Of a stretch of 34,536 bases of DNA, positions 669 through 19,105 are shown in pieces (position 1 is the stretch's first letter; every line of letters starts with the position of its first letter). Source of the DNA: a virus. The position numbers and the translations under genes are program-made. The stretch lies in the IMG/VR virus record IMGVR_UViG_3300037067_027639, positions 1-34,536 of that record; one strand, written 5' to 3'. The notes under the pieces are model-generated. The model was given only the letters and a program-made list of their open reading frames with translations. It was not told where the DNA came from and did no database searches.

Positions 669-1310
669 ATGGAAATCGACATCACTATCAGGAACGCCAC
701 GCCCGAAGAGGCACAGCGGGTCCTCATCGGCATGAGTTTTGCGGAGGATATCCTTGGCAAACTCTCACCCGCAATCAGGATTGAGAAAGCACAGAAGAAG
801 CAGGTACCGGATCCGACCTGCGACGAGGAGACCGGCTGTGCTGGGTGCGACAACACCGGGGCCATGGATGCGGACCGCTGCGACAAGTGCAGCCCGCCCC
901 CGGCTCATAAACCCGCCGACGGTTTACCGTCGAAGACCGGGAGACGCAAAGGCAACAAGTTCGGCATCCCGACCGAGCTGGCAAAGACCGATAAGAAACT
1001 CTTCGATCGGCTCTGGCAGCGGTGCAAGTCGCATGGTATCACCTATGAGGAGGCCGTGAAACTCAAACCCACCAAGAGGGGCAGGAAACCGAAAGCCCCG
1101 AACGCCTCCAAATTGACTCAAGCAATTGATTCAAGCAATGAATGGACCCTGGAAGAGGATGCCGCGATCCGGGAGTGCCCGAACGAGGACATGGCGCTCA
1201 CCCATTTCATGAACAAGTTCCCCGAGTCTGAACGGACGGCCGTGGAGGTCTCCCAGAGATGGCAGGAGCTCAGGGGATTGGCAGATGAGATGGCGGAGGC
1301 AGAGGCATGA
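669..1310 (+). CDS. Cys-motif protein with C-terminal Myb/SANT-like HTH, 213 aa
   Basis: Central C..C..C..C..C cluster; C-terminal WTLEED...F...RT...V..RWQEL pattern. Confidence 0.75.
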   Translation: MEIDITIRNATPEEAQRVLIGMSFAEDILGKLSPAIRIEKAQKKQVPDPTCDEETGCAGCDNTGAMDADRCDKCSPPPAHKPADGLPSKTGRRKGNKFGIPTELAKTDKKLFDRLWQRCKSHGITYEEAVKLKPTKRGRKPKAPNASKLTQAIDSSNEWTLEEDAAIRECPNEDMALTHFMNKFPESERTAVEVSQRWQELRGLADEMAEAEA

Positions 1311-2146
1311 CCGGGGATGTCCGCATCATCGAGTCCGAGATCGGGCCGGTCATCCCCCTGGTCGATATCGCGGACCAGCTTCATTATACCTCATCAGGAC
1401 TGCGGAAAGTCGTCGGGAGACACCCCGGGACGTTCCAGGCCGAGAAAGTTTTCATACCCATTCCCACGGCTCGCGGCCCGCAGAAAGGCTGGTGTCTGAC
1501 CAGGAAAGGCATGGAAGATCTCATCCTCCTGATCTCTCCTGGATCAGGGACGAAGGCCGGCCTCCTGGAGAAACGGGTGGAGAAGTTCCACATGGGGCCG
1601 GCCGCCCCGGCCCTGTCATCCCCACAACCCGATCCGGTGATCACGTACCTGAAACGCAACGCGGAGATTGCGGATATCCTGGTCAAGGGATATGGCTACA
1701 CAGAGGAGGTTGCCCACCGCCTCGCCATGCAGGACGCGGTCAACAAACACGGGGAGGTTCTGGCACCGTTCAAGGCTCCGGCGCTCTTACCTGCGGCAGA
1801 TCCGCAGGAGCCGGTTGCCTATGAGCATTGCGAGAGTTGCCTGATCAAAGAGGAGGATCCCGACTTCGACCGGTACTTCTCGCTGCGGAAAATCGCCGAG
1901 ATCACCCACGAGTCGGAGGACCGGGTCCGCAACATTCTGGAGAAGGAGGGACTGCTCAGCTACCATCACGGCGTCTGGCATCTCACCACGCTCGGCCAGA
2001 AGTTCGGCAAGGTTTTCACCCACTACCCGCTTTTCCCGCATCGTCTCACTAAAAAGAATATGATCCGGTGGTCTCCTGCGGCGATCGAGCGTGTGAAAGT
2101 CCACTTATCAGCAGGCCAGACGTCCCTGGTGCCAGCTCACGGGTGA
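1307..2146 (+). CDS. Phage antirepressor-like DNA-binding protein (Bro-N/KilA-like N-terminus, ANT/KilAC-like C-terminus), 279 aa
   Basis: ATGA overlap; motifs LVDIADQL..IPTARGPQKGWCLTRKGM and SLRKIAE...LEKEGLL..WHLTTLGQKF resemble these families. Confidence 0.6.
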   Translation: MTGDVRIIESEIGPVIPLVDIADQLHYTSSGLRKVVGRHPGTFQAEKVFIPIPTARGPQKGWCLTRKGMEDLILLISPGSGTKAGLLEKRVEKFHMGPAAPALSSPQPDPVITYLKRNAEIADILVKGYGYTEEVAHRLAMQDAVNKHGEVLAPFKAPALLPAADPQEPVAYEHCESCLIKEEDPDFDRYFSLRKIAEITHESEDRVRNILEKEGLLSYHHGVWHLTTLGQKFGKVFTHYPLFPHRLTKKNMIRWSPAAIERVKVHLSAGQTSLVPAHG

Positions 2147-2404: not shown

Positions 2405-3943
2405 ATGCAAGCACTCCAGGCACAACCGCAGACGTCCGCCGAGCTCGCCGCACGGTTCGGGGTTTCGGACAGGCACATCCGCAGAACCATAGCGGACCTC
2501 ATCCTCGAAAAGAAAGTCAGCAGGCAGCGGGCCGGCCGTGATTTCCTCTACTCGCTTGCTGCGGCGGTGGTGGAGGAGGATGCTGCTACTACTACTATTA
2601 CGGGTTCAGCGGGAACCGCGGACAATTGCGGACATAATGTCCGCGATCGCGATCTCGGACATACCTCGGACACCGGGGAGACGATCGCGGACATTCGCGG
2701 ACATGATCGCGGACATGGGAAACCGCAGAACTCGAAGCAGCGGCACCGGATTACGAAACGGACCCCCTCAATGCATGGTCCCGCCGCAAACGGGCCCCCC
2801 TGCGGCCCCGGACCCGGCCCCTTAACGCCGTGCGGGGACAGCGGCACCAATCTATGTCCGCAATTCTTCGCAGGGTTCGAGCGGGACATGATCCAGTTCG
2901 TACTGTTCGACAAGATATTCAGGGACCTCCTGATGACCCGGGCGGATGAGAGGGGCTGGCAGGTCCGCAAGGTCCACGGCCTGACCTGGATCTATCCGAT
3001 GAACACCCTCTCGCTCCAGGTGGGGAAAGACACCGTGACATTTTACAGCAGCGAGCCGGGCGACATGTCCGTGATCTCCCGGTGGGTCCAGGACAATTTT
3101 GCGGTTGAGTATGGAGACATCAAATCGCTGGTATGCCGGATCAAGTATCCGCAGAACCTCTCGTCAGAAGAGTTGACGGTCGTTGTCAAGCGGCCAGAGA
3201 CCATTCAGGCAATCCGGACCAGCATCGGGAAATCCATGGTTAACGGCCAGTTCAACCTGCAACACCCGAGCGAAGCCATCCCGGGCCTGAAAATCTACGA
3301 GCGGGACAGCACCATGCGGATAGAGTTCATCGTCCACAACCACAAGACTGGGGCCGCTGCGGTCGACATGCGGGAAGAGCTGATGCGGGACCTCCCGAGA
3401 ATTCACGGGACCCCCGGCCTGTTCTGGGAATTCGTCCAGAAATACTACTCGGCACTCCATCACCCGCTGATTATCGACACGGGGGGCCACGACTTCCTGG
3501 CGGCCCTGGACAAGATCACCGGTCACTTCACCGGAGCACTTCGGGACCTTGCCGCCAAGATCCCCGCGGCCCCGACCGGCAGGGAACTGCAGCTCAGGGA
3601 ACTGAGGGACGCAATTGAAGCCCTGGAAAGCGGCGAGTTGGGAGACATCATCCGGACCTTCAGGGACCTTGCGAACATCGAGGAAACCCCCACCAAAGTA
3701 TTCCTGGCAGCCTGGGTGATCTGGAACAACCGGCACCGGAAAGGCCGGGTCAACAAGGCCGAGATTGCGGGCATGCTGATGAGGCAGAACGACCCGCTTA
3801 CCCTGGCACAGATAGCGGACGCTGTCGACCGGTTGAAGATGGTCGGGCTGATGGACGAGAATCCGAAGATTGAGATCTGCTTCTCGGCAGCAGGGCGGGA
3901 GATAGCCGAGATTCTGATAGCGAAAAAGGAGGGGATACAGTGA
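2405..3943 (+). CDS. Winged-helix protein, putative replication initiator, about 512 aa (alternative start 2387)
   Basis: N-terminal wHTH (TSAELAARFGVSDRHIRRTIADL..RQRAGRDFLY), second wHTH-like C-terminus, internal repeat array, position before resolvase and PCNA; GGAG precedes ATG 2405. Confidence 0.6.
   Translation: MQALQAQPQTSAELAARFGVSDRHIRRTIADLILEKKVSRQRAGRDFLYSLAAAVVEEDAATTTITGSAGTADNCGHNVRDRDLGHTSDTGETIADIRGHDRGHGKPQNSKQRHRITKRTPSMHGPAANGPPCGPGPGPLTPCGDSGTNLCPQFFAGFERDMIQFVLFDKIFRDLLMTRADERGWQVRKVHGLTWIYPMNTLSLQVGKDTVTFYSSEPGDMSVISRWVQDNFAVEYGDIKSLVCRIKYPQNLSSEELTVVVKRPETIQAIRTSIGKSMVNGQFNLQHPSEAIPGLKIYERDSTMRIEFIVHNHKTGAAAVDMREELMRDLPRIHGTPGLFWEFVQKYYSALHHPLIIDTGGHDFLAALDKITGHFTGALRDLAAKIPAAPTGRELQLRELRDAIEALESGELGDIIRTFRDLANIEETPTKVFLAAWVIWNNRHRKGRVNKAEIAGMLMRQNDPLTLAQIADAVDRLKMVGLMDENPKIEICFSAAGREIAEILIAKKEGIQ
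2619..2715. repeat. Iteron-like array of eight CGGACA motifs (7 direct, 1 inverted)
   Basis: CGGACA at 2619, 2629, 2656, 2667, 2688, 2698, 2710; TGTCCG at 2638; GCGGACAT-A-ATGTCCGC dyad at 2628-2644. Confidence 0.85.
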
Positions 3944-4134
3944 ACAGCAGGGAATCAAGGATCGAGAGATGGATTGCGAAACAGAAAATGGGGGCGACGT
4001 TCAAGACCGCCGAGCTGGCAAAAGAACTGAATTACGACCCCAAGACGGTCGGCCGGGTCATCGGGAAACAGCCGAACATTAAAGGCCACCACATTAGGGG
4101 ATCCTGTCATATCTGGGAGGTTGTTGCAACATGA
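3940..4134 (+). CDS. Small winged-HTH protein, 64 aa
   Basis: GTGA overlap; FKTAELAKELNYDPKTVGRVI HTH pattern followed by beta-wing. Confidence 0.75.
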   Translation: MNSRESRIERWIAKQKMGATFKTAELAKELNYDPKTVGRVIGKQPNIKGHHIRGSCHIWEVVAT

Positions 4135-4301
4135 CCGAAGAAATTCGGGACTGCCCGACCTGCCGGTACGATGTGCCGATGGAAGAACGGCAGAGGATCG
4201 GGCCCAGTGCGCCATTATGCCGGCACCCGGAAGAAGGCGAGCCCGGGTTCTGGGACCGCCGGATTGAGCAGTGCTGGACGCCCCGGGAAGGTGCGGAATG
4301 A
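4131..4301 (+). CDS. Small Cys-motif protein, 56 aa (below ORF-track cutoff)
   Basis: Hand translation MTEEIRDCPTCRYDVP...LCRHP...QCWTPREGAE; ATGA overlaps at both ends. Confidence 0.7.
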   Translation: MTEEIRDCPTCRYDVPMEERQRIGPSAPLCRHPEEGEPGFWDRRIEQCWTPREGAE

Positions 4302-4648
4302 AACCCGCCAGCTGCAAGGCCAAGGGCCGGGTGCTGCAGAACGAGATCGTGCAGAACCTCCGCACCGCATACCCTGAGCTCGGGGAACCGGACATCCGGC
4401 CCGCCATCATGGGGCAGAGCGGTATTGACATCCTCCTGAGCTCCCGTGCGCGGGACCTGTTCCCCTACGCAGTCGAGTGCAAGAACCAGGAGGCCCTGAA
4501 CATCTGGGAATGCCTGAAACAGGCCGAGGAGAACGGCAAGAAAGAACGGATGGTCCCGCTGCTGGTATTCCGCCGCAACCGTACGAAGACCTACGTGGCG
4601 ATTGAGTGGACTGAATTCCTGAACCTCGTGACGGCGGTGCAGCGATGA
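4298..4648 (+). CDS. PD-(D/E)xK Holliday junction resolvase-like nuclease, 116 aa
   Basis: KAKGRVLQNE...GIDI...AVECKNQE...PLLVFRRNR motif series typical of phage/archaeal Hjc-like resolvases. Confidence 0.8.
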   Translation: MKPASCKAKGRVLQNEIVQNLRTAYPELGEPDIRPAIMGQSGIDILLSSRARDLFPYAVECKNQEALNIWECLKQAEENGKKERMVPLLVFRRNRTKTYVAIEWTEFLNLVTAVQR

Positions 4649-7605
4649 GCTCCTGCAGCAGCGTCCCAACCCAGAAAGAAAAGAAGTGGGGAGTCAAGGA
4701 CTGCCGGGCGCGGAAATGTCCGGACTTGAGGAAAGACACGACCGGCCCGTTCCCGGAAGATAGCCCGGAACGGTGCCGTGCCCTTGGTGAGGACTATAGC
4801 CCGCTGCCCGGGACGTTGTCCTGCTGCATCAAGGACCTGGACGGAATGAAACCCGAGGAGTTCCTCCGACACGTGATATGGTCCCTGCGGGATGCCTGGG
4901 AGAAGAAGTTCACCGGCAATCGGAAAACACCCGGGGCGAGGAACTGTCCGGCCGGCTGCCCCTTCAAGATCTCCGAAGAGGGTGAGGTCAGAGACCGGAG
5001 CAATAAGGACGACTACTACGCGATGAAGAAAGGACTGATCTGGAAATGCGCCTTTTCCGGTGCCGAGCTCGGTTCAGGTCTCGCGGCATCGTGTCCCTGC
5101 CATGTCCTGGACAACCCGGACCAGGAGAAGTATCTCCGGGACTTGCAGACAACGATCAAAATCTATCAGCAGGACGGTTTCGATTATAAGTATCTCGATG
5201 TCAGATGCGCAACCTGTTCATGTCCCGACGGGATTCACCGCTGCAAGGACTGGAAGACCTGCCCCGTCATCAAGCTCCCGATAGCGGACATCAAGGAATG
5301 CCCGCTCTGGAGGATCCCCGGGACGCTGCTGCCGGCCACGCCCGCGATCGAGGCCCCTGCAAAACCCACGCCGGAGCCGGAACAGAATACCGAAAATAAG
5401 CCAGCACCCGAATCACCGGAAGAGAGACTGGCGCGAGGAAAGGCCATCCGCGAGGAGGTCAGGGAAAACCGGGAAGCGATGAAGAGAGTGATGTCGGGGA
5501 AATCGTCGGTGAAGAAAGCCAAGAAGGAGAAACCCGAACCTCCGGCCCTGAACGTCCTCTATCTGGAAGACTGCGAGAGCCTGACCAAGCGGATGGAGCC
5601 GGAGTCCGTGGACCTCATCTTCACGGACCCGCCATACCCGACCGAGCCGATCGATGAGGATGGCGTGACCCAGTGGGAACGGGCCTACGTCGCCCTGCAC
5701 CTCATTGCCTGCAAGGTCTTGAAACCATCAGGGTGGCTGATTACCTACGCACCGCAGGCCCACCTGCTCGATATCATGGAGATCCTGGCATACGGGTCCT
5801 CCTGGAACATCAACGTACAGGAAACCGGAGGACGCCTGGACTATTTCTGGATCATCCCCTCCATCAACGGGGGAGCCACCTGCAAGGCTCACAAGTGGAA
5901 CGCCCTCTGCCTGCACAAACCGATCCTTGTATACCAGAAAGCCCCGTTCAAGAGCCCCTCAAAATGTTTCGCTGACGTCGTCCGTGGCAAGAAACAGAAA
6001 TCACACCATGCATGGCAGCAGAGCGTGCATGACGCAATCGGCATCATCAGCCGGTTCATGGAGATAGGGCAGGTCCTCTATGACCCATACGCCTGCACCG
6101 CCACTTCGCTCATCGCTGCAAACCTGCTCGGGATGCAATGGATAGGGGCGGAAATTGACCCGGCAGCCCACGCGATAGGCGTCCGCGAGCTGCAGCAGCG
6201 GCCCATGGACCTGTTCACGTTCGGGGGAGAGGTCCCAGAAGCCCCGGCCCCGCGAGAAGTCCGGGAAGAGAGGGACACCAGCCGGCAGGCATCGATCGCG
6301 GATCCCGCAAAGGACGCCCGGCCGGTAGAGTGCAAGATCGAGGACCTCACGGAAAAGAAGGAACCGCTCTGCTATTGCACCCCCTGCAAGACCTGGGCGA
6401 CCTGCACGGCCAAACCGGAGAGCAAGGAGTGCCAGGAGCACCGCAAGCTCCAGGAAGAACCCGAAGAAGAGAAGGGTGGCTGCACCAACTGCGGCCATCA
6501 CAAGACCAAGAAGACCTTCAAGGAGTCCTGCACGCGGCTCAATGACCTGCTCTGGAAAGGCGGCGAGTATTCAGCCGCCCGGCTCATGGCAGAGGTTGCA
6601 GCGGACGGTTGCCTCGGCTGGATCCCGAAGGAAGAGGCGCCGGCAAAGGAGGAGAAGTGCGACATCCATTATTACAGCGGAAAGGACCTCTCACCCTCAC
6701 TTGGAACCTGCCCGGTAAAATGTCCGTATAGGAACGCGGGAAAATCCTCCTGCAATTTCATGGACCAGCAGTTCCTGCGAATGGAAAGCTGCCCGACCGG
6801 AGTGCTCCAGGGCAATGAAGCCGGACAGAAACAGCAGCTGGAGAACATGGCTAGGGCTCTAGCACGGCTGTCTGCACACATCCCCTCGGAAGAACAATGC
6901 CAGTGCAATCCCTGTCCGGACGGAGTCATCCGCTGCGGCATTGAAGACGAGAATTGCCCGTTCAGCAAAACCCCATTCTACGATATGGCCCTCTGCCCGA
7001 TGACGAACCCCCGCAGGGTCCGCCAGATACGAAGGGAGAACCCCGTCAAATTCGTGAGCATCGAGGAGAAGATACCATCAGTTCCCGTGGACACGGCGCC
7101 GGCACAACAAAAACCGAACTGCGGAGGCAAACGCCCGGCGCTCAACAGATGCCCGGTTGATTGCCCCGATCGAAGCATCGAGAAGGAAGGGGGATATCCC
7201 CAAGGCCGCTGCAAGCAGACTGGAGAAAAACTCCGGGAAATGCAGACCTGCCCGAACGACCCCCCGAAGCCGGCCAAGAAATCAAAGAAGGAGAAACCTC
7301 TCGAATGCCACGACCCGTTCCGGAAATTCCTGAACGAGCACCACGAGCAGATCACGACAGGCAAGGACCTCCCGATCGTCCCGCACGTAGTGGAACAGTA
7401 CAAGCGATTCGACCACCAGGAGCGGCGGGTCAGACTCTTCATCAGTGACGGAAAATTCCCGTTCGGCCCCTGGTGGACCCTCGCACCCTCTGGGATACTG
7501 CGATCGGTGAAGAAACCGACCGGAGATCTCAACCAGGGAGAATCATATCCTGACTGCAGATTCAGGTTCGAATGGCATTACGACGACAAGAAAAAGGAGG
7601 ACTGA
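4645..7605 (+). CDS. 986-aa Cys-repeat protein with embedded beta-class N6-adenine/N4-cytosine DNA methyltransferase domain
   Basis: DLIFTDPPY (DPPY at 5626-5637) precedes motif I-like VLYDPYACTATS..WIGAEID (6082-6108); MTase domain about 5548-6200; flanked by many CPxxCP-type modules. Confidence 0.85.
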   Translation: MSSCSSVPTQKEKKWGVKDCRARKCPDLRKDTTGPFPEDSPERCRALGEDYSPLPGTLSCCIKDLDGMKPEEFLRHVIWSLRDAWEKKFTGNRKTPGARNCPAGCPFKISEEGEVRDRSNKDDYYAMKKGLIWKCAFSGAELGSGLAASCPCHVLDNPDQEKYLRDLQTTIKIYQQDGFDYKYLDVRCATCSCPDGIHRCKDWKTCPVIKLPIADIKECPLWRIPGTLLPATPAIEAPAKPTPEPEQNTENKPAPESPEERLARGKAIREEVRENREAMKRVMSGKSSVKKAKKEKPEPPALNVLYLEDCESLTKRMEPESVDLIFTDPPYPTEPIDEDGVTQWERAYVALHLIACKVLKPSGWLITYAPQAHLLDIMEILAYGSSWNINVQETGGRLDYFWIIPSINGGATCKAHKWNALCLHKPILVYQKAPFKSPSKCFADVVRGKKQKSHHAWQQSVHDAIGIISRFMEIGQVLYDPYACTATSLIAANLLGMQWIGAEIDPAAHAIGVRELQQRPMDLFTFGGEVPEAPAPREVREERDTSRQASIADPAKDARPVECKIEDLTEKKEPLCYCTPCKTWATCTAKPESKECQEHRKLQEEPEEEKGGCTNCGHHKTKKTFKESCTRLNDLLWKGGEYSAARLMAEVAADGCLGWIPKEEAPAKEEKCDIHYYSGKDLSPSLGTCPVKCPYRNAGKSSCNFMDQQFLRMESCPTGVLQGNEAGQKQQLENMARALARLSAHIPSEEQCQCNPCPDGVIRCGIEDENCPFSKTPFYDMALCPMTNPRRVRQIRRENPVKFVSIEEKIPSVPVDTAPAQQKPNCGGKRPALNRCPVDCPDRSIEKEGGYPQGRCKQTGEKLREMQTCPNDPPKPAKKSKKEKPLECHDPFRKFLNEHHEQITTGKDLPIVPHVVEQYKRFDHQERRVRLFISDGKFPFGPWWTLAPSGILRSVKKPTGDLNQGESYPDCRFRFEWHYDDKKKED

Positions 7606-7611
7606 AACCCC

Positions 7612-8346
7612 ATGATGAAAATTACCCAGGAACGGCTGGCAGAGTTCTGCAGCATCGTACAGGCACTCGTGCCGGAATGCAAGATGGTGATCACGGAAAC
7701 CGGATGGAACACCATGGCCGTGGACACCGCGAACGTTGGCATGGTCGTCTGCCATATGCCAAACACCTCCTTCACCGAGTTCACGGTAGAGAAGATCGAG
7801 GTCGGCATGGACATGCAGAAGTGGAAAGACCTGCTGAACATCATGAAGGACCCGAAGGGGACCATCACGATAGACCCGATCACTTCAGGTAAACTCCTGA
7901 TCTCGGACGGCAAATATACTTACACCCACACGCCGCTGGACCCGACCACGATCCGGAAATGGCCAACCATGCCGAGCGTGAAACTGCCATCATCGATCGA
8001 CATCGACGCCCAGGAATTCGCCGAGTCCATCAAGGCGCTGGCCGTAATCGGGGATAAGGTCCGGTTCACGGCAAAGGGCGAAGTGCTGGAGATGAAAACC
8101 GAGGGTGACACCGACAGCCTGGTGAAGGAGCTCAACGTCCCGATCCCAGGAGACTCTCGCACGGAGTCATACACGTCTCTGTTCAGCATCGAGTACCTCA
8201 AGGACGTCTCAAAAGCCATGAAGGGCGCCGGGAAAATCACCGTGCATATGGGGAAGGACCACCCGATCCGGTTCGATTTCGACCTGGAAGGAATGGATTG
8301 CTCATATTTGCTGGCTCCCAGGATCGAGCAGGAGGAAGCGGCATAA
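7612..8346 (+). CDS. pcn: DNA polymerase sliding clamp, archaeal-type PCNA, 244 aa
   Basis: AVDTANVGMV, IEVGMD, YTSLFSIEYLKDVSKAM, HMGKDHPIRFDF, YLLAPRIEQE match PCNA signature segments; length typical. Confidence 0.93.
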   Translation: MMKITQERLAEFCSIVQALVPECKMVITETGWNTMAVDTANVGMVVCHMPNTSFTEFTVEKIEVGMDMQKWKDLLNIMKDPKGTITIDPITSGKLLISDGKYTYTHTPLDPTTIRKWPTMPSVKLPSSIDIDAQEFAESIKALAVIGDKVRFTAKGEVLEMKTEGDTDSLVKELNVPIPGDSRTESYTSLFSIEYLKDVSKAMKGAGKITVHMGKDHPIRFDFDLEGMDCSYLLAPRIEQEEAA

Positions 8347-8747
8347 TGGCGCTCTCAGTGAAAGTCGCCCTGAAACAGGAGGACGACGCGGAATACGGCC
8401 TCATCTGGAAGGCCGAAGTCAAGGACTGGAGCCTGAACGCCCAAGGTGACAGCCTGGAAGAGGTCCTCGCGGTGATGGAGCGGAAGATCATCACCTACCT
8501 GCACGAGACATTCGGCACGAAACGGAAGATCTCCGCGAGTGTCGGGCTCGCCAGTGCACGGGTAGAGTTCGAGTGCGAGATCATCACCGGTGATGGCTCC
8601 ACCCGGGCCCCACTTGAGAAGGTAATGGCAGCGGCAGAGAAGATCACAGACCTTGCGGAAAAGACCGGGAAGTCCCCGCTCACGATCCTCAAAGAGGCGA
8701 AGGCGAAACTTTCCGAAGAGAAGAAAAAGAAGGGGGCGCTGGAGTGA
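8346..8747 (+). CDS. HicB-like (RNase H-fold antitoxin-like) protein, 133 aa
   Basis: TAATG overlap; WKAEVKDWSLNAQGDSLEEVLAVMERKIITYL resembles the HicB core. Confidence 0.55.
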   Translation: MALSVKVALKQEDDAEYGLIWKAEVKDWSLNAQGDSLEEVLAVMERKIITYLHETFGTKRKISASVGLASARVEFECEIITGDGSTRAPLEKVMAAAEKITDLAEKTGKSPLTILKEAKAKLSEEKKKKGALE

Positions 8748-9493
8748 ACAAGACCGCGATCGAGTGGTGCGATTATACCTGGAACCCGGTCACGGGCTGC
8801 AAGCACGACTGCCCGTACTGCTACGCACGAAAGATAGCCGAGCGATTTAAGGGAGGGAAGGCATGGCCCAACGGCTTTGCCCCGACTCTGCATCCAGAAC
8901 GGATGAACGACCCGATGAGACAGAAGACACCGCAGACAATCTTCGTATGCTCGATGGCGGATCTGTTCGGCACCTGGGTACCGGACGGATGGATTCACAC
9001 GGTCTTCATGGCAATGCTTCGGGCTCCGCAGCATAGGTACATCATGCTGACGAAGGATCCGAATCGAGCCGGGCATCGTTTCATGGACAACTTCTATTCA
9101 TTCGGTGAGAAACTGCTCCCCTCAAAAATCCCGCGGAACTGGTGGATTGGAGCAAGCGTCGAGTCCTCGCGATATACCGGGCGAATTGACGATCTGCGAA
9201 GGATCCCAACCGGCAACCTCTTCGTCTCTTTCGAGCCTCTGCTCGGCCCGGTCGATTCGGAAGACTTCCCTCTCGATCTAAAAGGAATTGCACAGGTCAT
9301 CGTGGGTGCGCAGACCAATCCAACAGTTATCCCCCCGTCGAATGCAATCAGCGATATCGTGAAAACCGCGAAAAACCAGAATGCTCTGGTCTTCTTCAAG
9401 GACTCGATGAACGGTGTACCCTGGCCTGGACAAAGCACGTTTGTGAACGTTCACGATCTCGCATGGCCGCTGCGGAAAGAGGTGAGCGCTTGA
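8744..9493 (+). CDS. DUF5131 / phage Gp37-Gp68 family protein (radical-SAM-like CxxxCxxC), 249 aa
   Basis: TAIEWCDYTWNPVTGCKHDCPYCYA, IFVCSMADLF, MLTKDP, FVSFEPLLG, FFKDS are characteristic motifs. Confidence 0.9.
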   Translation: MNKTAIEWCDYTWNPVTGCKHDCPYCYARKIAERFKGGKAWPNGFAPTLHPERMNDPMRQKTPQTIFVCSMADLFGTWVPDGWIHTVFMAMLRAPQHRYIMLTKDPNRAGHRFMDNFYSFGEKLLPSKIPRNWWIGASVESSRYTGRIDDLRRIPTGNLFVSFEPLLGPVDSEDFPLDLKGIAQVIVGAQTNPTVIPPSNAISDIVKTAKNQNALVFFKDSMNGVPWPGQSTFVNVHDLAWPLRKEVSA

Positions 9494-9711
9494 GCCCCCA
9501 CGCCCTCCGCCCTCACTGCATCGTCTGCGGCGCGAAACTCCCACACATGTCCCGGAAGGAAGCGATCGAGAAAGGCATGGCTGCGGAGGTGCAGGTGGAC
9601 AAAGGCCCGGCGCGAACCTTCTACCGCTGCATCGGCCGGCACAGCACCGAAGAATTCCTGCAGGCGATCGGGCTCGTGCCGAAGTTCGTCCGGGCCGGGA
9701 GCTGCAAATGA
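9490..9711 (+). CDS. Small Zn-finger-like protein, 73 aa
   Basis: TTGA overlap at 9490; CIVC...C..H. Confidence 0.6.
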   Translation: MSPHALRPHCIVCGAKLPHMSRKEAIEKGMAAEVQVDKGPARTFYRCIGRHSTEEFLQAIGLVPKFVRAGSCK

Positions 9712-9824
9712 TAGAAGAACAATTGATAGCTTACGCCAGTTATCTTCAATGGATCCGCACAAATCCTCCGATCGTTGAAGAGGCACAATTCTGGATGGAT
9801 ATCGAGATGATGGTGCGACCATGA
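9708..9824 (+). CDS. Micro-protein, 38 aa
   Basis: Hand translation MIEEQLIAYASYLQWIRTNPPIVEEAQFWMDIEMMVRP; ATGA overlaps at both ends. Confidence 0.55.
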   Translation: MIEEQLIAYASYLQWIRTNPPIVEEAQFWMDIEMMVRP

Positions 9825-9985
9825 CCTGCCGATATCAGGACTGTTACCTCTGCCCGATGGAGGGAAAGAAAACGTTCACGGATGGCCTGTCACATGAAGA
9901 CAGAATGCTCGCCATGCGCTCGATAGAAGGAGGCTGCGTAAGAATCGGGATGTTCAGAATCCAGCCCCGGCGGACTTCATCATGA
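9821..9985 (+). CDS. Small Cys-motif protein, 54 aa
   Basis: Hand translation MTCRYQDCYLCPMEGKK...GGCVRIG; ATGA overlaps at both ends. Confidence 0.6.
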   Translation: MTCRYQDCYLCPMEGKKTFTDGLSHEDRMLAMRSIEGGCVRIGMFRIQPRRTSS

Positions 9986-10134
9986 CCCACCATATCTGCA
10001 GGGACTGCCGGAAACCCTACGAGCGGGATCCCGCGGTCCAGGAGCGATGGAACCGGACGCGGCCCGAGACCGAGGGCCTCTGCCTTGACTGCATCGGGCG
10101 ACTCGCAACGGACAAAGCCATGGAGGAACCATGA
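9982..10134 (+). CDS. C2-C2 zinc-finger micro-protein, 50 aa
   Basis: Hand translation MTHHICRDCRKPYE...GLCLDCIGRL; ATGA overlaps at both ends. Confidence 0.7.
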   Translation: MTHHICRDCRKPYERDPAVQERWNRTRPETEGLCLDCIGRLATDKAMEEP

Positions 10135-10325
10135 AGACGCTCTTCGATTACTCGCAGCCGGACCCGCAGCAGGAGCACAGTGTCCCGGTCGGCCCGGTCC
10201 CGATCCGGAACTGGCCCCTGGCACTCAGCACGGCCCGAGAATGTCTCGGGAGATACGGTCATGCCCTCCCGGTGAGCAACGGGAGCGAGGACCGGCCGGC
10301 CTCTGGCGAGTGGAACGGGAGGTGA
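10131..10325 (+). CDS. Hypothetical protein, 64 aa, N-terminus MKTLFDY
   Basis: GGAGG before ATG; ATGA overlap. Confidence 0.65.
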   Translation: MKTLFDYSQPDPQQEHSVPVGPVPIRNWPLALSTARECLGRYGHALPVSNGSEDRPASGEWNGR

Positions 10326-13047: not shown

Positions 13048-14276
13048 AAAAAAAGGAACTGAAAAACGTCCCGATCACCTCCCTGGTCCCATACCAGAAG
13101 AAACTCCACGACACGAGCAAGGCGGTTCCCGATATCGCCCACTCCCTGGAAAAATTCGAGTACGTCAAGATCTCGGTCGTTGTCGATGAAAACCTGCAGG
13201 TCATCTGCGGACAGGGCGTCCTGAAAGCGATGGAGGAGATCGGGTGGGAAAAAGTCCCGGAGGTCACCCAGGTCATCGGAATGCCCGAGACGCTCAAGCG
13301 GGAATACCGGATAGCGGATAACCAGGCTGGCAGCCGCTCGAAATGGAACCCCGAAGACCTCCTCAAGGAAATCGAAGAGATCAAGCTCGATGACCCGGCC
13401 TTCCAGGTGGACGACATCGCGTTTGACCAGCGGGACCTGGACCAGATGCTCCACGACCTGGAAGACGAGAAGACCGAAGAGGACGACTTCGACCCCGCCA
13501 CCATCCGGCCCACGGACATCAAGTACGGCGATATCTATCAGCTGGGTCCCCACCGGCTCATGTGTGGGGATGCCACAAAACCCGAGGACCTGCAGAAGCT
13601 CCTGGACGGCCGTCAGACTCACCTGGTCTTCACGGATCCCCCGTATAACGTCGACTATACCGGCAAGACAAAGGACGCCCTCAAAATCGCCAACGACCAC
13701 ATGACCGAGTCGGAATTCTATAAGTTCCTGCTGCAGGCGTACCGGTGCATGTTCGACGCCTGCATGCCCGGGGCCCCCATCTATGTCTGCCATTCGGACT
13801 CTGAAACCCTCGCCTTCCGGCAGGCGTTCAAGGAAGCCGGCTGGGAGCTGAAGCAGTGCATCATCTGGGTGAAAGACCAGTTCGTTCTCGGCCGGCAGGA
13901 CTACCACTGGCAGCACGAGCCCATCCTGGAAGGATGCAAGGGGCACGAGCCGGTCCTTTACGGGTGGAAAGGTGGCAAGGCCCACCGCTGGTTCGGAGGC
14001 CGGAACAAGAGCACAGTCTGGGAAATCCCGAAGCCTGCCCGTAATGCCGAACACCCGACAATGAAACCGATCGAGCTGGTGGCCCGGGCCGTGAAGAACT
14101 CCTCGGTCAAGGGCAACGTGGTCCTGGACCCGTTCGGGGGCCTCGGGTCCACTCTCATGGCCTGCGAACAGACCGGCCGGATCTGCTGCACGAGCGAGCT
14201 GGGCCCGCACTACTGCCAGGGCATCATTGACCGATGGGAAAAATTCACTGGCAAGACTGCGGAGAAGGTCGCCTGA
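13044..14276 (+). CDS. ParB-like N-terminal domain plus N6/N4 DNA methyltransferase, about 410 aa (alternative start 13038)
   Basis: VVVDENLQVICGQG..YRIADN (ParB-like); HRLMCGDAT, VFTDPPYNV, HPTMKPIELV, VLDPFGGLGST; classic position before terminase. Confidence 0.92.
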   Translation: MKKKELKNVPITSLVPYQKKLHDTSKAVPDIAHSLEKFEYVKISVVVDENLQVICGQGVLKAMEEIGWEKVPEVTQVIGMPETLKREYRIADNQAGSRSKWNPEDLLKEIEEIKLDDPAFQVDDIAFDQRDLDQMLHDLEDEKTEEDDFDPATIRPTDIKYGDIYQLGPHRLMCGDATKPEDLQKLLDGRQTHLVFTDPPYNVDYTGKTKDALKIANDHMTESEFYKFLLQAYRCMFDACMPGAPIYVCHSDSETLAFRQAFKEAGWELKQCIIWVKDQFVLGRQDYHWQHEPILEGCKGHEPVLYGWKGGKAHRWFGGRNKSTVWEIPKPARNAEHPTMKPIELVARAVKNSSVKGNVVLDPFGGLGSTLMACEQTGRICCTSELGPHYCQGIIDRWEKFTGKTAEKVA

Positions 14277-14782
14277 TGGTCCGGAAGAAACCCGCCGCGA
14301 AGAAGAAGACGGCGCCGGCAAAAATCAGGAAGACCCGGGGCGCACCGACCAAGTACGACCCCGACATTCACCCGATAAAAGGGTGGACCCTGGCACAGAA
14401 AGGCTGCATCAACAAAGAGATCGCGGCCGGACTCAGAATTTCAACAGCCACGCTCGCCTCCTGGGTAAAAAAATTCCCGGAATTCCTGAGTGCCATTAAG
14501 GAGGGCAAGGAAGTCGCGGATGGAAAGGTCGCCAAGGCCCTGTATAAACGGGCGATCGGGTATAAGATTCCCGAGAAGAAAGTCACCCAGAACGCCGACG
14601 GGAGTATCCGGAAAGAAGTCACCGAGAAAGAAATCAGCCCTGACGTCACCGCGATCAAGTTCTGGCTTACCAACCGGGACCCGGAGAACTGGAAGGACAA
14701 GGTCGACCACGAGATCGGTGGCAAGGACGGGAAACCCATCGCGGTCAAGGTCCTCCGCGGCGTTAGCATGGAGGACCTATGA
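14276..14782 (+). CDS. terS: Terminase small subunit, 168 aa
   Basis: TGATG overlap; GAPTKY..NKEIAAGLRISTATLASW HTH, VAKALYKRAIGY, PDVTAIKFWLTNR; directly upstream of TerL. Confidence 0.85.
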   Translation: MVRKKPAAKKKTAPAKIRKTRGAPTKYDPDIHPIKGWTLAQKGCINKEIAAGLRISTATLASWVKKFPEFLSAIKEGKEVADGKVAKALYKRAIGYKIPEKKVTQNADGSIRKEVTEKEISPDVTAIKFWLTNRDPENWKDKVDHEIGGKDGKPIAVKVLRGVSMEDL

Positions 14783-16344
14783 GCATGGCCGCCCCCGCCC
14801 CCTCATCCCCCTGGGTGATCGTCGAGCTCCCGGAAGGTGCAGCGCAGGGGTTCCAGCCATACGGCGGCGGTCTCGCGCTCTGGAAATACAAAGGCCCTGA
14901 AGTCATCATCAGCGGCCCGGCCGAGACTGGCAAGACCCGCACGGCCCTGGAAAAACTCGACACGCTCCTTTGGAAATACCCGGGATCGCAGGCAATCATC
15001 GTCCGGAAAACCTACAAGAGCCTGAAGACTTCGGTGCTCCTGACCTACGAGCGCAAGGTCCTCGGGGCCTGGAACAAAGACGGCACCACCACGATCCGGG
15101 ACGACGCGGGGCGGGTCATCAAGACGCTCAAGGGGGCATTCGACCAGAGCAAAACCCCGGTCGTGAAACTCGGAGGGGAGCACGTTGAGGGATACGTGTA
15201 CCCGAACGGCAGCCGCATCTTCCTCGGGGGCATGGACGTACCGCAGAAGGTCCTCTCGTCCGAATGGGATTTCGTCTATGTCAACCAGGCGGAAGAGCTC
15301 GACCTCAACGATTGGGAAATCATCAGCACCAGGACCACGGGCCGGGCGGGAAACTCTCCTTATGCCCAGATGATAGCGGACTGCAACCCGGACCGCCCCA
15401 CCCACTGGATCCTCTCCCGCCCCACGCTCAAGGTAATCGAGAGCCGGCATGAAGACAATCCGACGCTGTTCAACCAGGTAACCGGGGCCATCACCGAGCA
15501 GGGCAAGCGCACACTGGCGGTCCTTGATGCACTCACGGGCGTCAGGAAACTCCGGCTCCGACACGGCAAATGGGTAGCTGCGGAAGGTGTCGTGTACGAA
15601 GACTGGGACCGGTCCATCCACCTCATTGACCCGTTCCCGATTCCGGACACCTGGATCCGCATTCGGGCGATCGACTTCGGGTATACCAACCCGTTCGTCT
15701 GTCAATGGTTGGCGATCGACGGCGACGGCCGGATCTATCTCTATCGGGAGATCTACATGAGCCGGCTTCTGGTGGAGGACGCAGCGGCACAGATCAACAC
15801 GCTGTCATGCGCAGGACCGTCAAAGGTAGCCGTCACATGCCCCGTGTGTGGCACCCCCAACAAACCCGGGGTTGACCATTGCGAGAACTGCGGTCAACCG
15901 TGGATGGAAGATATCTACGCGACAATCGCCGACCACGACGCAGAAGACAGGGCAACCCTTGAGCGGCACGGGATCCCCACCGTTGCTGCGATGAAGGCAG
16001 TTTCCCCGGGTATCCAGGCAGTCCAGTCCCGGCTCCGGAAAGCCGGTGATGGCAAGCCCCGCCTCTTCGTCTTTCGTGGTGCCCTTGTCGATGTGGACCC
16101 GACCCTCCGCGAGGCCCACAAACCGGTATGCACCGAGGAAGAATGGGACTCGTATATCTGGAGACCGACGACGAGCGGCCCGAACAAGGAAGAACCGCTC
16201 AAGAAAGACGATCACGGGATGGACACGCTCCGTTATGCGGTCGCGTTCGTCGATGGCGTGACGGCCGGAGACGAGACAACAGAAGAGACTGTGACGGTGT
16301 TTGACGATGACGGAAGCGGGTATGGCGGGATCAGTCCCGTATGA
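14779..16344 (+). CDS. terL: Terminase large subunit, 521 aa
   Basis: Walker A SGPAETGKT, Walker B region YVNQAEE, DCNP coupling motif, nuclease IDFGYTNP and DDHGMDTLRY. Confidence 0.95.
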   Translation: MSMAAPAPSSPWVIVELPEGAAQGFQPYGGGLALWKYKGPEVIISGPAETGKTRTALEKLDTLLWKYPGSQAIIVRKTYKSLKTSVLLTYERKVLGAWNKDGTTTIRDDAGRVIKTLKGAFDQSKTPVVKLGGEHVEGYVYPNGSRIFLGGMDVPQKVLSSEWDFVYVNQAEELDLNDWEIISTRTTGRAGNSPYAQMIADCNPDRPTHWILSRPTLKVIESRHEDNPTLFNQVTGAITEQGKRTLAVLDALTGVRKLRLRHGKWVAAEGVVYEDWDRSIHLIDPFPIPDTWIRIRAIDFGYTNPFVCQWLAIDGDGRIYLYREIYMSRLLVEDAAAQINTLSCAGPSKVAVTCPVCGTPNKPGVDHCENCGQPWMEDIYATIADHDAEDRATLERHGIPTVAAMKAVSPGIQAVQSRLRKAGDGKPRLFVFRGALVDVDPTLREAHKPVCTEEEWDSYIWRPTTSGPNKEEPLKKDDHGMDTLRYAVAFVDGVTAGDETTEETVTVFDDDGSGYGGISPV

Positions 16345-16405: not shown

Positions 16406-16621
16406 ATGACAGGACACTTTGAAAACGGAAGATGGATTGAGGATCCGGCCCCCGCGAAGGCAGGCGCCGGGCAGATAGATATGCACGTTAAGGTGCATGT
16501 GGACGACAGCGAACTGCGGGAACTCCGCGAGGTGCTTGATGGCATCCGGGACGTAATGAGCCCCCCCACAACATTCTGGGGGCGGGTCCGATGGCTCCTG
16601 TTCGGGGGTGAAATACGATGA
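16406..16621 (+). CDS. Hypothetical protein, 71 aa
   Basis: Between TerL and portal; ATGA overlap with portal. Confidence 0.65.
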   Translation: MTGHFENGRWIEDPAPAKAGAGQIDMHVKVHVDDSELRELREVLDGIRDVMSPPTTFWGRVRWLLFGGEIR

Positions 16622-18474
16622 AACCCAACGTCGATGCACTCGTGAAGCAGGTCCAGAACCTGACCGAAGCGGTACAGATCAGCGAGCGCAACCAGGAATA
16701 CCTCCAGGAGAATCTCACGGTCCTGGAACAGCAGCTGACCGAACAAGGGTGGGAACGCATCGGATCCGGATATTCCCGCGACTTCACCGAACGGGCCCGC
16801 GTCAACCTGTATGACTCCGCCCGGATCTACTGGCTGAAGAACCCCCTGATCCGGAGGGCCGAGCTCGTCCAGGCGCTCTACGTCTTCGCGCAGGGCATGA
16901 CCGTCAAGGGCGACCATGAGACTGTCGATGCCGTAGTCCAGAAGTTCATTGCCGACCGGCAGAACTACAACGCCTTCACCGGGCACCAGGCGTGGATGAC
17001 CAACGAAGCGGTCCTCACGCTGTCAGGCAATCTCTTCTTCATCCTGTTCACGAACGAGAGCACGGGCCGGGTCATCGTCCGGCAGATCCCCCTCTACGAG
17101 ATCTCGGACATCATCACCGATCCGGAAGACAGCACGATGCCATGGTTTTACAAGAGAACCTACACCATCAACGAGTTCAACGCCCTGACCGGTATCGTCA
17201 CGCCAAAGTCCGCGATCGCCTACTATCCCGACTGGAGACACAACCCGAAAGACCGACCGGACACCATCGGAGGCAACCCGGTACACTGGGACGCCCCGGT
17301 CTACCACGTCAAGGTCAACTGCCTGCCGGACATGAAGTTCGGTGTCTCGGAAGTCTATAGCTGTCTCGATTGGGCGAAGGCATACAAGACGCACCTGGAG
17401 AACGGGAACAAGATCTGGCAGGCCCTCGCATCGTTCGCGTTCCGGATGACCACGAAAGGCGGGTCGAACGCAATCACAGCGGCAGCCTCGAAGATCAGGG
17501 GGCTCATCGGCAAACCAGACGGAACCACAACCACGCCCGACAAGCGGCCAGTGGCATCAACGTTCACCAGCGGGGAAAGCGTCAAGCTCGAACCGTTCAA
17601 GACATCCGGCATGACAATCAGCATGGAAGACGCCCGGGCCCATCGGCTCATGATCTGTTCGGGGTCTGGCATTCCCGACCACATCGAGAGCGGCGACCCG
17701 AGCACCGGCAACCTCGCCACGTCCACTACCATGGAGCGGCCGCTCGAACTCCAGTTCCTGAACCGTCAGCAGCTCTGGATCGATATCTGGCAGGACATCC
17801 TCGAATACGTCATCGATCAGGCTATCCGGGCACCGAAAGGGCCTCTGGAGGGCGAGGAAGAAATCGATGAGTATACTGATGAAGTCCGGTGGGTCCTCAA
17901 TGGAGAGGAGAACCCGGAGAATCCGGAAGACGGCACCGAACCAATACCCCGCACGATCACGATAGCATTCCCGCCGCTCCTGGAGCACGACCAGCTTCAG
18001 ACCGTGCAGGCCATCATCGCAGGAGCAACCGCGGACGGCAAACCTCTGGCGGGCACCATGGACCTCAAAACACTCACGCAGTTGATCTTCAAAGCGCTGA
18101 AAGTCCCGAACGCAGACGAGAAGATTGACGAGCTGTTCCCGGAGGGGTCAGGACTGGTCATGCAAACCGCTTTCACCACGCAGCAGCAGGCCAACGCAGC
18201 AGCGCAGGCCCTTGCCCTGGCACAGCAGCCACGGGCGCCCCCGTATCCTCCCTCTGACGAGGAAGAGTGGGGGTCGGTCAAGGGTAGGAACGTTGACGTA
18301 CCTGCAGGAGGAGTCCAGGAGGCCTTTGGTGGCGTGAGAGGGATACCATTCGACATTGAGAACTCGCAGGCATATCGGGAGAGCTCGGCCGCTCTGATCG
18401 CAGCCCGCAGGAAGTTCACAGACGCGATCATGAAAGGCATCGAAGAGCATTACCCGGTCGAGGAGGGATCCTGA
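16618..18474 (+). CDS. Portal protein, 618 aa
   Basis: Position after TerL; LSGNLFFIL..VRQIPLYEISDIITDP, HVKVN..FGVSEVYS..W..AYK, SGIPDH..GDPSTGNLATS portal-like motifs. Confidence 0.88.
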   Translation: MKPNVDALVKQVQNLTEAVQISERNQEYLQENLTVLEQQLTEQGWERIGSGYSRDFTERARVNLYDSARIYWLKNPLIRRAELVQALYVFAQGMTVKGDHETVDAVVQKFIADRQNYNAFTGHQAWMTNEAVLTLSGNLFFILFTNESTGRVIVRQIPLYEISDIITDPEDSTMPWFYKRTYTINEFNALTGIVTPKSAIAYYPDWRHNPKDRPDTIGGNPVHWDAPVYHVKVNCLPDMKFGVSEVYSCLDWAKAYKTHLENGNKIWQALASFAFRMTTKGGSNAITAAASKIRGLIGKPDGTTTTPDKRPVASTFTSGESVKLEPFKTSGMTISMEDARAHRLMICSGSGIPDHIESGDPSTGNLATSTTMERPLELQFLNRQQLWIDIWQDILEYVIDQAIRAPKGPLEGEEEIDEYTDEVRWVLNGEENPENPEDGTEPIPRTITIAFPPLLEHDQLQTVQAIIAGATADGKPLAGTMDLKTLTQLIFKALKVPNADEKIDELFPEGSGLVMQTAFTTQQQANAAAQALALAQQPRAPPYPPSDEEEWGSVKGRNVDVPAGGVQEAFGGVRGIPFDIENSQAYRESSAALIAARRKFTDAIMKGIEEHYPVEEGS

Positions 18475-18475
18475 A

Positions 18476-19105
18476 GTGGTCCCCCCGCCCGAAACCCTGG
18501 AGCGCATCATCGCGACCGCAGCGGAGACACTCAAGCAAGATAGCATCTCGGCCCTCACCCGGAACGCAGTGGTCGCATCGGTCGAGGGGCAGGAGCATGG
18601 GGCCGCCACGCTCGGGATCTCGCTGAACTTCAACCTCGTCAATTCCTACGCGGTCCAAAAAGCCGTCGAGTATCGGGACCTGCTCGTGAGAAAGGGCGGG
18701 TCCATGATTGGCGGAGAGTTCAAGCCCTGGTTGAAAGACGCGATCGCAGCGGACCGCAAGGCTATCACGGACATCGTCACCGATGCCATCAAAAACGGCA
18801 CACCCCGCAGGGACGTCCGCAAGCAGCTCGAAACGGTGTTCACAGCACAGGAGCACAACAGCGGTCTTGTCGCATACCAGGAGACCCGCCGGCTCCTGAC
18901 CGACGGCTCGTTCGACCGGTGGGAAGGCGAGGGAATACAGGAAGGGACCTGGATCCATCTGGACCCGCAGATCAACCCCCGGCCGGAGCACCAGGCCCGC
19001 CACGGCAGGAGGTATGCACTGACCGACCCGATCTGGAACGACCTCGACGAATACAACTGTCACTGTTCATGCGAGCCGGTGATCCCGGCAGCAGGGAGCG
19101 CATAA
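18476..19105 (+). CDS. Head morphogenesis protein (Mu gpF / SPP1 gp7-like), 209 aa
   Basis: Follows portal; W....D..PRPEHQARHG...NCHC motif. Confidence 0.8.
   Translation: MVPPPETLERIIATAAETLKQDSISALTRNAVVASVEGQEHGAATLGISLNFNLVNSYAVQKAVEYRDLLVRKGGSMIGGEFKPWLKDAIAADRKAITDIVTDAIKNGTPRRDVRKQLETVFTAQEHNSGLVAYQETRRLLTDGSFDRWEGEGIQEGTWIHLDPQINPRPEHQARHGRRYALTDPIWNDLDEYNCHCSCEPVIPAAGSA

Follow-up and report, generated by a model that had tools for sequence, protein, structure and literature searches.

In phage lambda, the repeats recognized by the replication initiator O lie inside the O gene itself, in the linker between an N-terminal DNA-binding domain and a C-terminal domain that recruits replication partners. 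There, as in P22 (gene 18), phi80 and 82, the N-terminal domain and its iterons form a specificity cassette that differs between phages, and the host replisome is needed. Likewise, SPP1 (gene 38/oriL) and the rep genes of the lactococcal phages TP901-1 and Tuc2009 carry origin repeats within the coding sequence of the origin-binding protein. Here we describe a locus of similar layout in a tailed archaeal virus or provirus, on a 34,536-nucleotide stretch of DNA (positions 1 to 34,536 of IMG/VR virus record IMGVR_UViG_3300037067_027639; hereafter, the window). Its P0001 gene encodes a 512-residue protein and contains an array of short repeats between the codons of an N-terminal winged helix and those of a larger C-terminal body. 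By analogy with lambda O, we favor, at somewhat better than even confidence, the reading that this array is a replication origin embedded in the gene of its own initiator, in an unrelated archaeal family. Comparison of homologous sequences makes it very probable that, whatever its role, the array is a protein-binding element selected at the DNA level and tied to P0001. The relevant features of the gene are as follows.

2405..3943, plus strand: P0001 gene, 512 amino acids, with the ATG at 2405 and the stop codon at 3941-3943 (from the list of open reading frames [ORFs] and their translation).
2405..2569, plus strand: N-terminal winged helix-turn-helix (HTH), residues 1-55; predicted local distance difference test score (pLDDT) 85-90; Pfam HTH_11 at E 3e-5, below the cut-off.
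2570..2890, plus strand: coding region of a disordered linker, residues 56 to about 163; pLDDT 28-46; variable in length, with indels in the alignment.
2582..2601, plus strand: upstream A/T-enriched tract GCTGCT-ACTACTACT-ATTAC, ending in a TATTAC box at 2596-2601.
2617..2717, plus strand: iteron array of eight units with the core CGGACA and the consensus (g)ATCGCGGACAT, in the linker at residues 71-105.
2628..2644, on neither strand in particular: perfect dyad GCGGACAT-A-ATGTCCGC with 8-bp arms, formed by two iterons head to head.
2853..2865, minus strand: distal inverted iteron, AATTGCGGACATA, about 135 bp past the array, over Leu-Cys-Pro-Gln codons.
2884..2893, plus strand: degenerate outlying copy, GGGACATGATC, over conserved Glu-Arg-Asp-Met codons.
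3064..3076, minus strand: outlying inverted copy, GATCACGGACATG.

Eight copies of CGGACA fall within 97 bp (2619-2715), seven on the plus strand (2619, 2629, 2656, 2667, 2688, 2698 and 2710) and one on the minus strand (2638), compared with 27 copies on both strands of the other 34.4 kb. At this background rate, 0.076 copies would be expected per 97 bp, so that the Poisson probability of eight or more is 2.6e-14, or about 9e-10 after multiplication by all window positions. The plus-strand copies are spaced 10, 27, 11, 21, 10 and 12 bp apart, and the repeat unit extends beyond the hexamer to about 12 bp. Nowhere else in the window, or in the 3.1-Mb assembly to which it belongs, do more than two copies cluster; in each of five related virus records (37-69 kb), a triple-GGACA pattern occurs at exactly one place, with 0 control hits. 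An earlier note on this DNA, made from the letters alone, had reported the eight copies, direct spacings of mostly 10-12 bp (4 of the 6, as it turns out), the 8-bp dyad, an inverted partner at 2853-2865 and a short ACT run ahead of the array. All of these were recovered: the inverted partner is real, forming a 19-nucleotide pair that is 89% complementary, and the run consists of three ACT triplets at 2588-2596, followed by ATTAC. The same note had placed the array in the linker after the N-terminal winged helix and had likened the arrangement to lambda O. Both statements stand, in that the pLDDT of the AlphaFold model drops below 50 past the confident winged helix, and the protein divides into a DNA-binding N-terminal domain, a repeat-encoding linker and a C-terminal body.

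Homologous loci with DNA (n = 16; L001 and so on below) came from IMG/VR, JGI metagenomes and one Methanoregula metagenome-assembled genome (MAG). Full-length matches among their proteins share about 33-86% identity with P0001. In every one of the 16, the same linker has 7-15 sites built on the core GGACA, most often as GGACAT; in one clade (L011) the core is partly shifted to TAGACA, mixed with GGACA. When the 60-bp windows of each locus are ranked by A+T content, the array region falls in the top 0.1-6% in 12 of 15 loci. All 16 have a TATTAC box (TATTAG in L014), at most about 40 bp upstream of the first repeat or, in clade B, abutting it. The codon in front of this box varies (ACT, TCT, AGT) and always ends in T; rare A/T-ending Thr and Ser codons (ACT, TCA, TCT, AGT) precede the box, ACT accounting for 9% of the Thr codons in the genome. 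The dyad at 2628-2644 is likely to be a dimer site, and an equivalent palindrome, GCGGACATGTCCGC, occurs in L001-L005, L017 and L018, with a looser inverted pair in L020. The distal inverted copy sits at the same conserved codons (Cys-Pro) in 13 of 16 loci, and its Cys codon is TGT in 13 of the 14 loci having the Cys, against 18% TGT usage in the genome; as the loci are related, these counts are indicative rather than independent. The outlying inverted copy holds the same relative place in L001, L002 and L003, and the degenerate copy at 2884-2893 may simply be a consequence of the conserved peptide.

The earlier note had stated that its idea would fall if homologues lacked the DNA repeats or conserved a peptide repeat with variable codons. 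The idea survives this comparison: throughout the family the DNA word is retained and its codons do not vary, whichever of two frames or orientations it is read in. Read on the plus strand, the word appears as GCG-GAC-ATx (Ala-Asp-Ile/Met) or as xGC-GGA-CAT (x-Gly-His), and read from the other strand it appears as ATG-TCC-GCx (Met-Ser-Ala) or as xAT-GTC-CGx (x-Val-Arg), so that one word specifies four unrelated peptides. Of the 63 Gly-His pairs in the linkers, 61 use GGACAT, versus 0 of 16 elsewhere in the same genes; with GGA and CAT making up 20% and 30% of their codon families, about 6% would be expected. When the peptide was fixed and its codons were resampled by genome usage, the mean count was 1.5-3.7 GGACA, compared with the 7-15 observed, and the observed count exceeded all 2000 resamples in 14 of 15 loci. 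The fixed codons, the use of two frames and both strands, and the excess over resampling therefore imply that selection acts on the DNA and not on the peptide, and these sequence comparisons show the array to be kept as DNA across the whole P0001 family. The contrary proposal would be that the array has no DNA-level function and is a His/Asp-rich peptide repeat or the product of neutral slippage in a low-complexity linker. GH and ADI motifs do recur in the linker peptide, and its length variation is typical of low complexity. Yet neither process accounts for the same word yielding unrelated peptides in two frames and on both strands, for the use of GGACAT in 61 of 63 Gly-His pairs or for counts that peptide-preserving resampling does not reproduce, and the GGACA core is still present at about 33% protein identity. 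We regard this proposal as effectively refuted and its remaining probability as negligible.

The repeat unit differs between groups of loci, as listed here.

ATCGCGGACAT: repeat unit of the window, L014 and L015.
AATAGCGGACAT: repeat unit of L001-L005, L017, L018 and L020.
ACACCGGACAT: repeat unit of L007, L009 and L010.
CATGGACAT: repeat unit of L006 and L008.
TAGACA mixed with GGACA: repeat unit of L011.

These differences follow the N-terminal winged helix. Its recognition helix in P0001 is SDRHIRR, of which R23 and R27 are invariant and H24 nearly so in the family alignment. A helix of the form RHxRR goes with C before GGACAT, and RHLQR goes with A/T before GGACA or with a TAGACA-type signature (5 of 5). 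Within the RR class, the wing motif D/NFL accompanies the ATCGC-type signature (13 of 13). The QR type of helix requires five independent changes, which are forced by well-supported branches of a maximum-likelihood tree built from the C-terminal 360 residues. At the DNA level, the window and L001 are 96% identical over 2697-4124 and 77% identical over 2216-2460, while window positions 2460-2697 have no detectable similarity to L001 6056-6311; this segment comprises the C-terminal half of the winged helix, the linker and the first six iterons, and the 3' mosaic breakpoint lies inside the array. The sharp mosaic boundary, together with the tracking of the winged helix by repeat type, therefore indicates that the winged helix and most of the array were repeatedly exchanged as one cassette. 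Such an exchange, as read from the sequences, would fit the N-terminal winged helix as the reader of the repeats, although it is supportive and not proof.

A paralogue of the same winged helix occurs in the L011 locus (Methanoregula sp. MAG contig JBFYKS010000204.1), where a 187-residue ORF (L011:5998-6561) lies directly upstream of the family gene (L011:6573 onward). Its first 45 residues match the family N-terminal winged helix at 41% identity (E 7e-6), and its C-terminal part is unrelated, with a D...E-V-K pattern that looks PD-(D/E)xK-like by eye and no Pfam match. As a lead only, this ORF could encode a nuclease or competitor that recognizes the same iterons, much as phage ICP1 has an origin-directed nuclease.

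P0001 belongs to a small family: a search of 5.8 billion proteins found 43 homologues, a second of 1.84 billion found 37 clusters at 50% identity, and GenBank phages gave no match. Its named members derive from Methanoregula bins, and the family consists of uncharacterized, Methanoregula-associated virus proteins. Pfam and PHROG scans returned nothing past generic HTH families; a DUF1627 match over residues 5-72 was subthreshold, and phrog_57, a small-terminase family, matched residues 10-55 weakly (E 4e-4). A profile search against PDB sequences returned ArsR-type HTH proteins alone, at E > 0.02, and neither these profiles nor Pfam and PHROGs detected an ATPase, nuclease, primase or known initiator domain. 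The structure was modeled with AlphaFold from a 36-sequence alignment, which adds two regions to the winged helix and linker listed above.

2891..3454, plus strand: central domain, residues 163-350, made of two tandem alpha/beta modules, each strand-helix-four-strands-helix.
3635..3940, plus strand: C-terminal helical region and second winged helix, residues 411-512 (VIA-align).

Only the two winged helices were recognized in a fold search with the whole model. They lie at residues 1-55 and at about 450-512, some 350 residues apart with unrelated domains between. By VIA-align, the first resembles the ArsR/SmtB and MarR winged helices (Z 8-9.4), and the second resembles the N-terminal domain of HrcA (Z 10.3) and the MarR and Rio2 winged helices (Z 8-9). 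The central domain, modeled alone, reached a pLDDT of 82 and a predicted template modeling score of 0.74. Each of its modules has a predicted topology resembling a half of TBP, and the order of secondary-structure elements is compatible with tandem TBP-type modules; the structural matches are weak. The best of them are heterogeneous (CYTH, Med18/20, the N-terminal domain of RNase HIII and TBP, with Z of at most 7.3). On TBP-type folds, Z was 5-7.3 with a root mean square deviation of about 3 A over about 80 residues per half, and Foldseek gave E values to TBP of at least 3e-3; the domain is accordingly assigned to no fold family. The modeled likeness to TBP and to the RNase HIII N-terminal domain hints at a further nucleic acid-binding surface. 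The structural search gave no P-loop-like match in this domain, inspection of P0001 by eye gave no convincing PIP (PCNA-interacting protein) box, and an ESM Atlas search scored best to unnamed clusters (0.87) and to DUF7845 (0.81), too low for a usable lead.

The genomic setting bears on what such a protein might do. The window is nearly all of contig C21 in an assembly of 173 contigs, and the contig is probably incomplete because an identical P0001 protein is also found on a 54.7-kb contig. The recognized genes include the following.

4271-4648: RusA/PDDEXK-like resolvase, in the early module, 330 bp downstream of the P0001 gene.
4645-7605: 986-residue methyltransferase fusion, in the early module.
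7612-8346, plus strand: viral PCNA (Pfam PCNA_C, E 3e-8; PHROG 947).
8744-9493: DUF5131 protein, in the early module.
14234-14782, plus strand: small terminase subunit, TerS (phrog_309, E 4e-48).
14779-16344: large terminase, TerL (phrog_2, E 2e-27), adjoining TerS.
16618-18474: portal protein.
18476-19105: MuF-like protein.
21833-22984: major capsid protein.

PCNA is the sole replisome part recognized in the window by Pfam and PHROG scans. Family genes keep their synteny with the resolvase, methyltransferases and PCNA in the window and related loci, and P0001 is the conserved DNA-binding protein of this DNA-metabolism module, which is an early module in all relatives. The five related virus records, of which one is rated 100% complete, yielded no MCM, Prim-Pol, PolB or Cdc6 (including Cdc6_C); four of the five encode a tyrosine integrase, and one is classed as a provirus. 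The presence of integrases and the lack of recognized replisome genes therefore indicate that the relatives are integrating viruses that must borrow the host replisome. The remark in the earlier note that PCNA is accompanied by no recognized polymerase, primase or helicase thus holds in the window and extends to whole related records.

We favor the origin reading because these viruses are integrating and poor in replisome genes, because P0001 stands in their DNA-metabolism module and because each genome has exactly one array; clustered copies (8-15), in one cluster per genome, are what an iteron origin presents. From this combination we infer that replication starts at the array, with the winged helix bound to it and the host replisome brought in. 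P0001 would then be an origin-binding initiator or replisome organizer, whose N-terminal winged helix would read the repeats, a direct copy taking a monomer and a head-to-head dyad a dimer. Occupation of 8-15 copies, together with the inverted copy lying about 135 bp further downstream, might wrap or loop the DNA into a nucleoprotein complex. Opening might then take place at or next to the TATTAC tract or the array, which is comparatively rich in A+T. The C-terminal body, with its tandem alpha/beta domain and second winged helix, would recruit the host MCM helicase and primase, after which the viral PCNA would serve the host polymerase. The linker peptide would be a passenger, a disordered stretch that tolerates what the DNA sites dictate.

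Several observations weigh against this interpretation. No initiator, whether lambda O, Rep_3/RepA, Orc1/Cdc6, DnaD or another, shows a detectable relation to P0001 in sequence or a confident one in fold. The array of the window's own subclade is G+C rich, reaching just the 85th-90th percentile of A+T content, and has no strong unwinding element. The earlier note had suggested phasing by about one helical turn; the plus-strand spacings in the window are mostly 10-12 bp, but the phasing is loose and only approximate, with centre-to-centre spacings over all loci peaking at 10-12 and 17-19 bp, plus 5 bp for head-to-head dyads. The cumulative GC skew that the note had proposed as a check gave no support for an origin at the array: there is a shallow local dip at about 2.5-3.5 kb, and the global extreme lies near 31 kb. 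The skew is uninformative here, however, because nearly all genes are co-oriented on one strand. With respect to the cassette, the protein P0020 joins a different wing to the ATCGC-type signature, the one contrary case, and the winged helix and array lie less than 250 bp apart, so that their co-transfer could be mere linkage. Finally, many ORFs near the P0001 gene carry no annotation, and an unrecognized replication protein or another origin may be present.

A bound array need not be an origin, and the first competing possibility is that P0001 or another viral factor binds inside the gene for regulation, either as a roadblock or in autorepression or for enhancer-like switching between early and late expression. 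It shares with the origin reading the evidence for a conserved protein-binding array that covaries with the winged helix, both winged helices resemble transcription factors of the ArsR, MarR and IclR types, and initiator homology was not found in P0001. We nevertheless think it unlikely, though worth keeping in view. Operators seldom comprise 8-15 sites spread along 100-250 bp well inside a coding region, an arrangement that origins typically show; the 5' end of the P0001 gene has no cluster of copies, and the family is fixed in the DNA-metabolism module of viruses without another recognized initiator. Regulation and initiation coexist in iteron replicons, and for that reason a regulatory role is partly compatible with an origin. 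Partition, or maintenance of an episomal prophage during segregation, is suggested by the form of the array, given that type II and type III partition centromeres are arrays of repeats of about 10-12 bp bound by small DNA-binding proteins, including the winged-helix TubR. We consider a centromere-like site improbable: the tyrosine integrases of the relatives and the one provirus record speak for integration rather than plasmid-like persistence, no ParA-, ParM- or TubZ-type nucleoside triphosphatase was recognized next to the gene in the window and six loci, and P0001, at 512 residues, is far larger than centromere-binding adaptors.

Two further candidates make the array a target of other DNA transactions. 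The mosaic breakpoint between the window and L001 inside the array, the L011 ORF just upstream of the family gene, in which a paralogous winged helix is joined to another kind of C-terminal domain, and the RusA-like resolvase 330 bp downstream might all point to a recombination or resolution site, or to recognition by a homing or competitor-directed nuclease. Short homology alone, however, predicts a breakpoint within repeats, and multiple phased direct repeats are unlike core recombination sites; no recombinase or nuclease fold was detected in P0001, and the integrases are 7-11 kb away from the array. The prospects of this explanation are about as slim as those of partition, or marginally slimmer. 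Slimmer again are those of a packaging (pac) site, for which the model would be the hexamer repeats inside pacA of phage P1. The gene of the pac-binding protein frequently contains the pac site itself (P1, P22, SPP1), and the weak small-terminase match of P0001 residues 10-55 is in keeping with this. But a clear TerS lies directly before TerL, 12 kb from the array, and this separate TerS rules out a pac-in-terS arrangement; moreover, P0001 is in the early module in all relatives, and the repeat type tracks its own winged helix. Mu-like transposition sites, considered on account of the MuF- and gpT-like head genes, were rejected, as no transposase was recognized and the relatives have tyrosine integrases. 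An RNA structure was also rejected as the primary explanation: the array folds with a z of -3.6, but its centroid has next to no structure, and the stems that do form are just the DNA dyads.

Set against the systems described at the outset, the reading of the array as an origin within its initiator gene is closest to lambda. P0001 shares with O the N-terminal domain, the linker-encoded repeats, the C-terminal body and, if our interpretation is correct, an exchangeable cassette and dependence on the host replisome. It differs in having no sequence or confident fold homology to O (no Phage_rep_O in Pfam or PHROG scans) and in its second winged helix and tandem alpha/beta domain. In lambda there are four iterons, which are 19-bp inverted repeats, and the A+T-rich region is clear; the P0001 loci have 8-15 units of about 12 bp, mostly direct, and a weak A+T tract, and in an archaeal host the partner would be MCM rather than DnaB-P. 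The replisome organizers of the Gram-positive siphoviruses are comparable in placing repeats within the gene, in temperate or tailed viruses that borrow host replication enzymes; the P0001 family is unrelated to them and belongs to a different domain of life, and while those phages encode a helicase loader or helicase beside the organizer, none was recognized beside P0001. Rep_3 initiators (RepA, RepE, pi) resemble P0001 in having two winged-helix domains and directly repeated sites at about one helical turn with inverted copies, and monomer versus dimer binding on direct versus inverted repeats is by analogy plausible for P0001 too. In Rep_3 proteins, however, the winged helices are adjacent and the iterons lie outside the gene, in contrast to helices about 350 residues apart and intragenic sites in P0001, which has no Pfam match to Rep_3. 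Archaeal Orc1/Cdc6 proteins with their origin recognition box (ORB) elements provide a winged-helix reader of repeated origin boxes that recruits MCM; P0001 has no AAA+ domain or Cdc6 family match in the Pfam scan, and its repeats are not known to resemble ORB boxes. By family tests, P0001 does not group with the O, Rep_3 or Orc1/Cdc6 proteins, nor is it the TerS next to TerL.

The surroundings of the family genes yielded some further observations. In the window, a 64-residue ORF (3940-4134) overlaps the P0001 stop codon by 4 nucleotides and has a weak HTH_38 match (E 0.012); judging from its sequence, it appears to encode a small DNA-binding protein cotranscribed with the initiator candidate. 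A 13-mer tandem repeat, AATTGACTCAAGC, is present in 2.2 copies at 1111-1139, inside the ORF at 669-1310. The ORF upstream of the family gene (about 280-300 residues) has, in L002 (147-1055), a Bro-N/P22 antirepressor N-terminal domain below Pfam cut-offs; its counterpart in the window (1307-2146) had no domain match. L007 encodes a reverse transcriptase (RVT_1, E 1e-21) at 725-1993, about 4 kb upstream of the family gene, which may be part of a diversity-generating or other retroelement. In the early module of the related provirus L006, 529-2949 encodes an 806-residue SMC_N/AAA_23 (SbcC/Rad50-like) ATPase, and a C5 cytosine methyltransferase lies at 8699-10174 of the same locus. The L010 family gene (6001-7717) has five in-frame stops in the frame of its start and an intact iteron array; the stops may stem from a sequencing error or a frameshift, or the gene may be decaying while keeping its array.

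To our knowledge, how replication starts in tailed archaeal viruses without a helicase, primase, polymerase or Orc1/Cdc6 is largely unknown, and the literature searched held no description of iteron origins in archaeal viruses or of the P0001 family. The locus offers a concrete candidate, consisting of one protein and one 250-bp DNA element with natural specificity variants, and it is a clean example of DNA-level selection dictating the sequence of a protein linker. The principle is already known; what would be new are the protein family, the domain of life and the presumed partner, MCM. On the sequences at hand, the chances are about equal that P0001 founds a previously undescribed family of archaeal virus initiators with a gene-embedded origin and a swappable winged-helix and iteron cassette. 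As far as we know, genetic tools for Methanoregula and other Methanomicrobiales methanogens are scarce, and a compact replicon for shuttle vectors in these organisms could follow. If the interpretation is correct, the gene and its internal array would make up a minimal replicon of one gene, taking over the host MCM replisome in Methanomicrobiales and providing a handle on how viruses recruit archaeal MCM, and the lambda solution, with the origin in the initiator's linker and an exchangeable specificity cassette, would have arisen independently in archaea.

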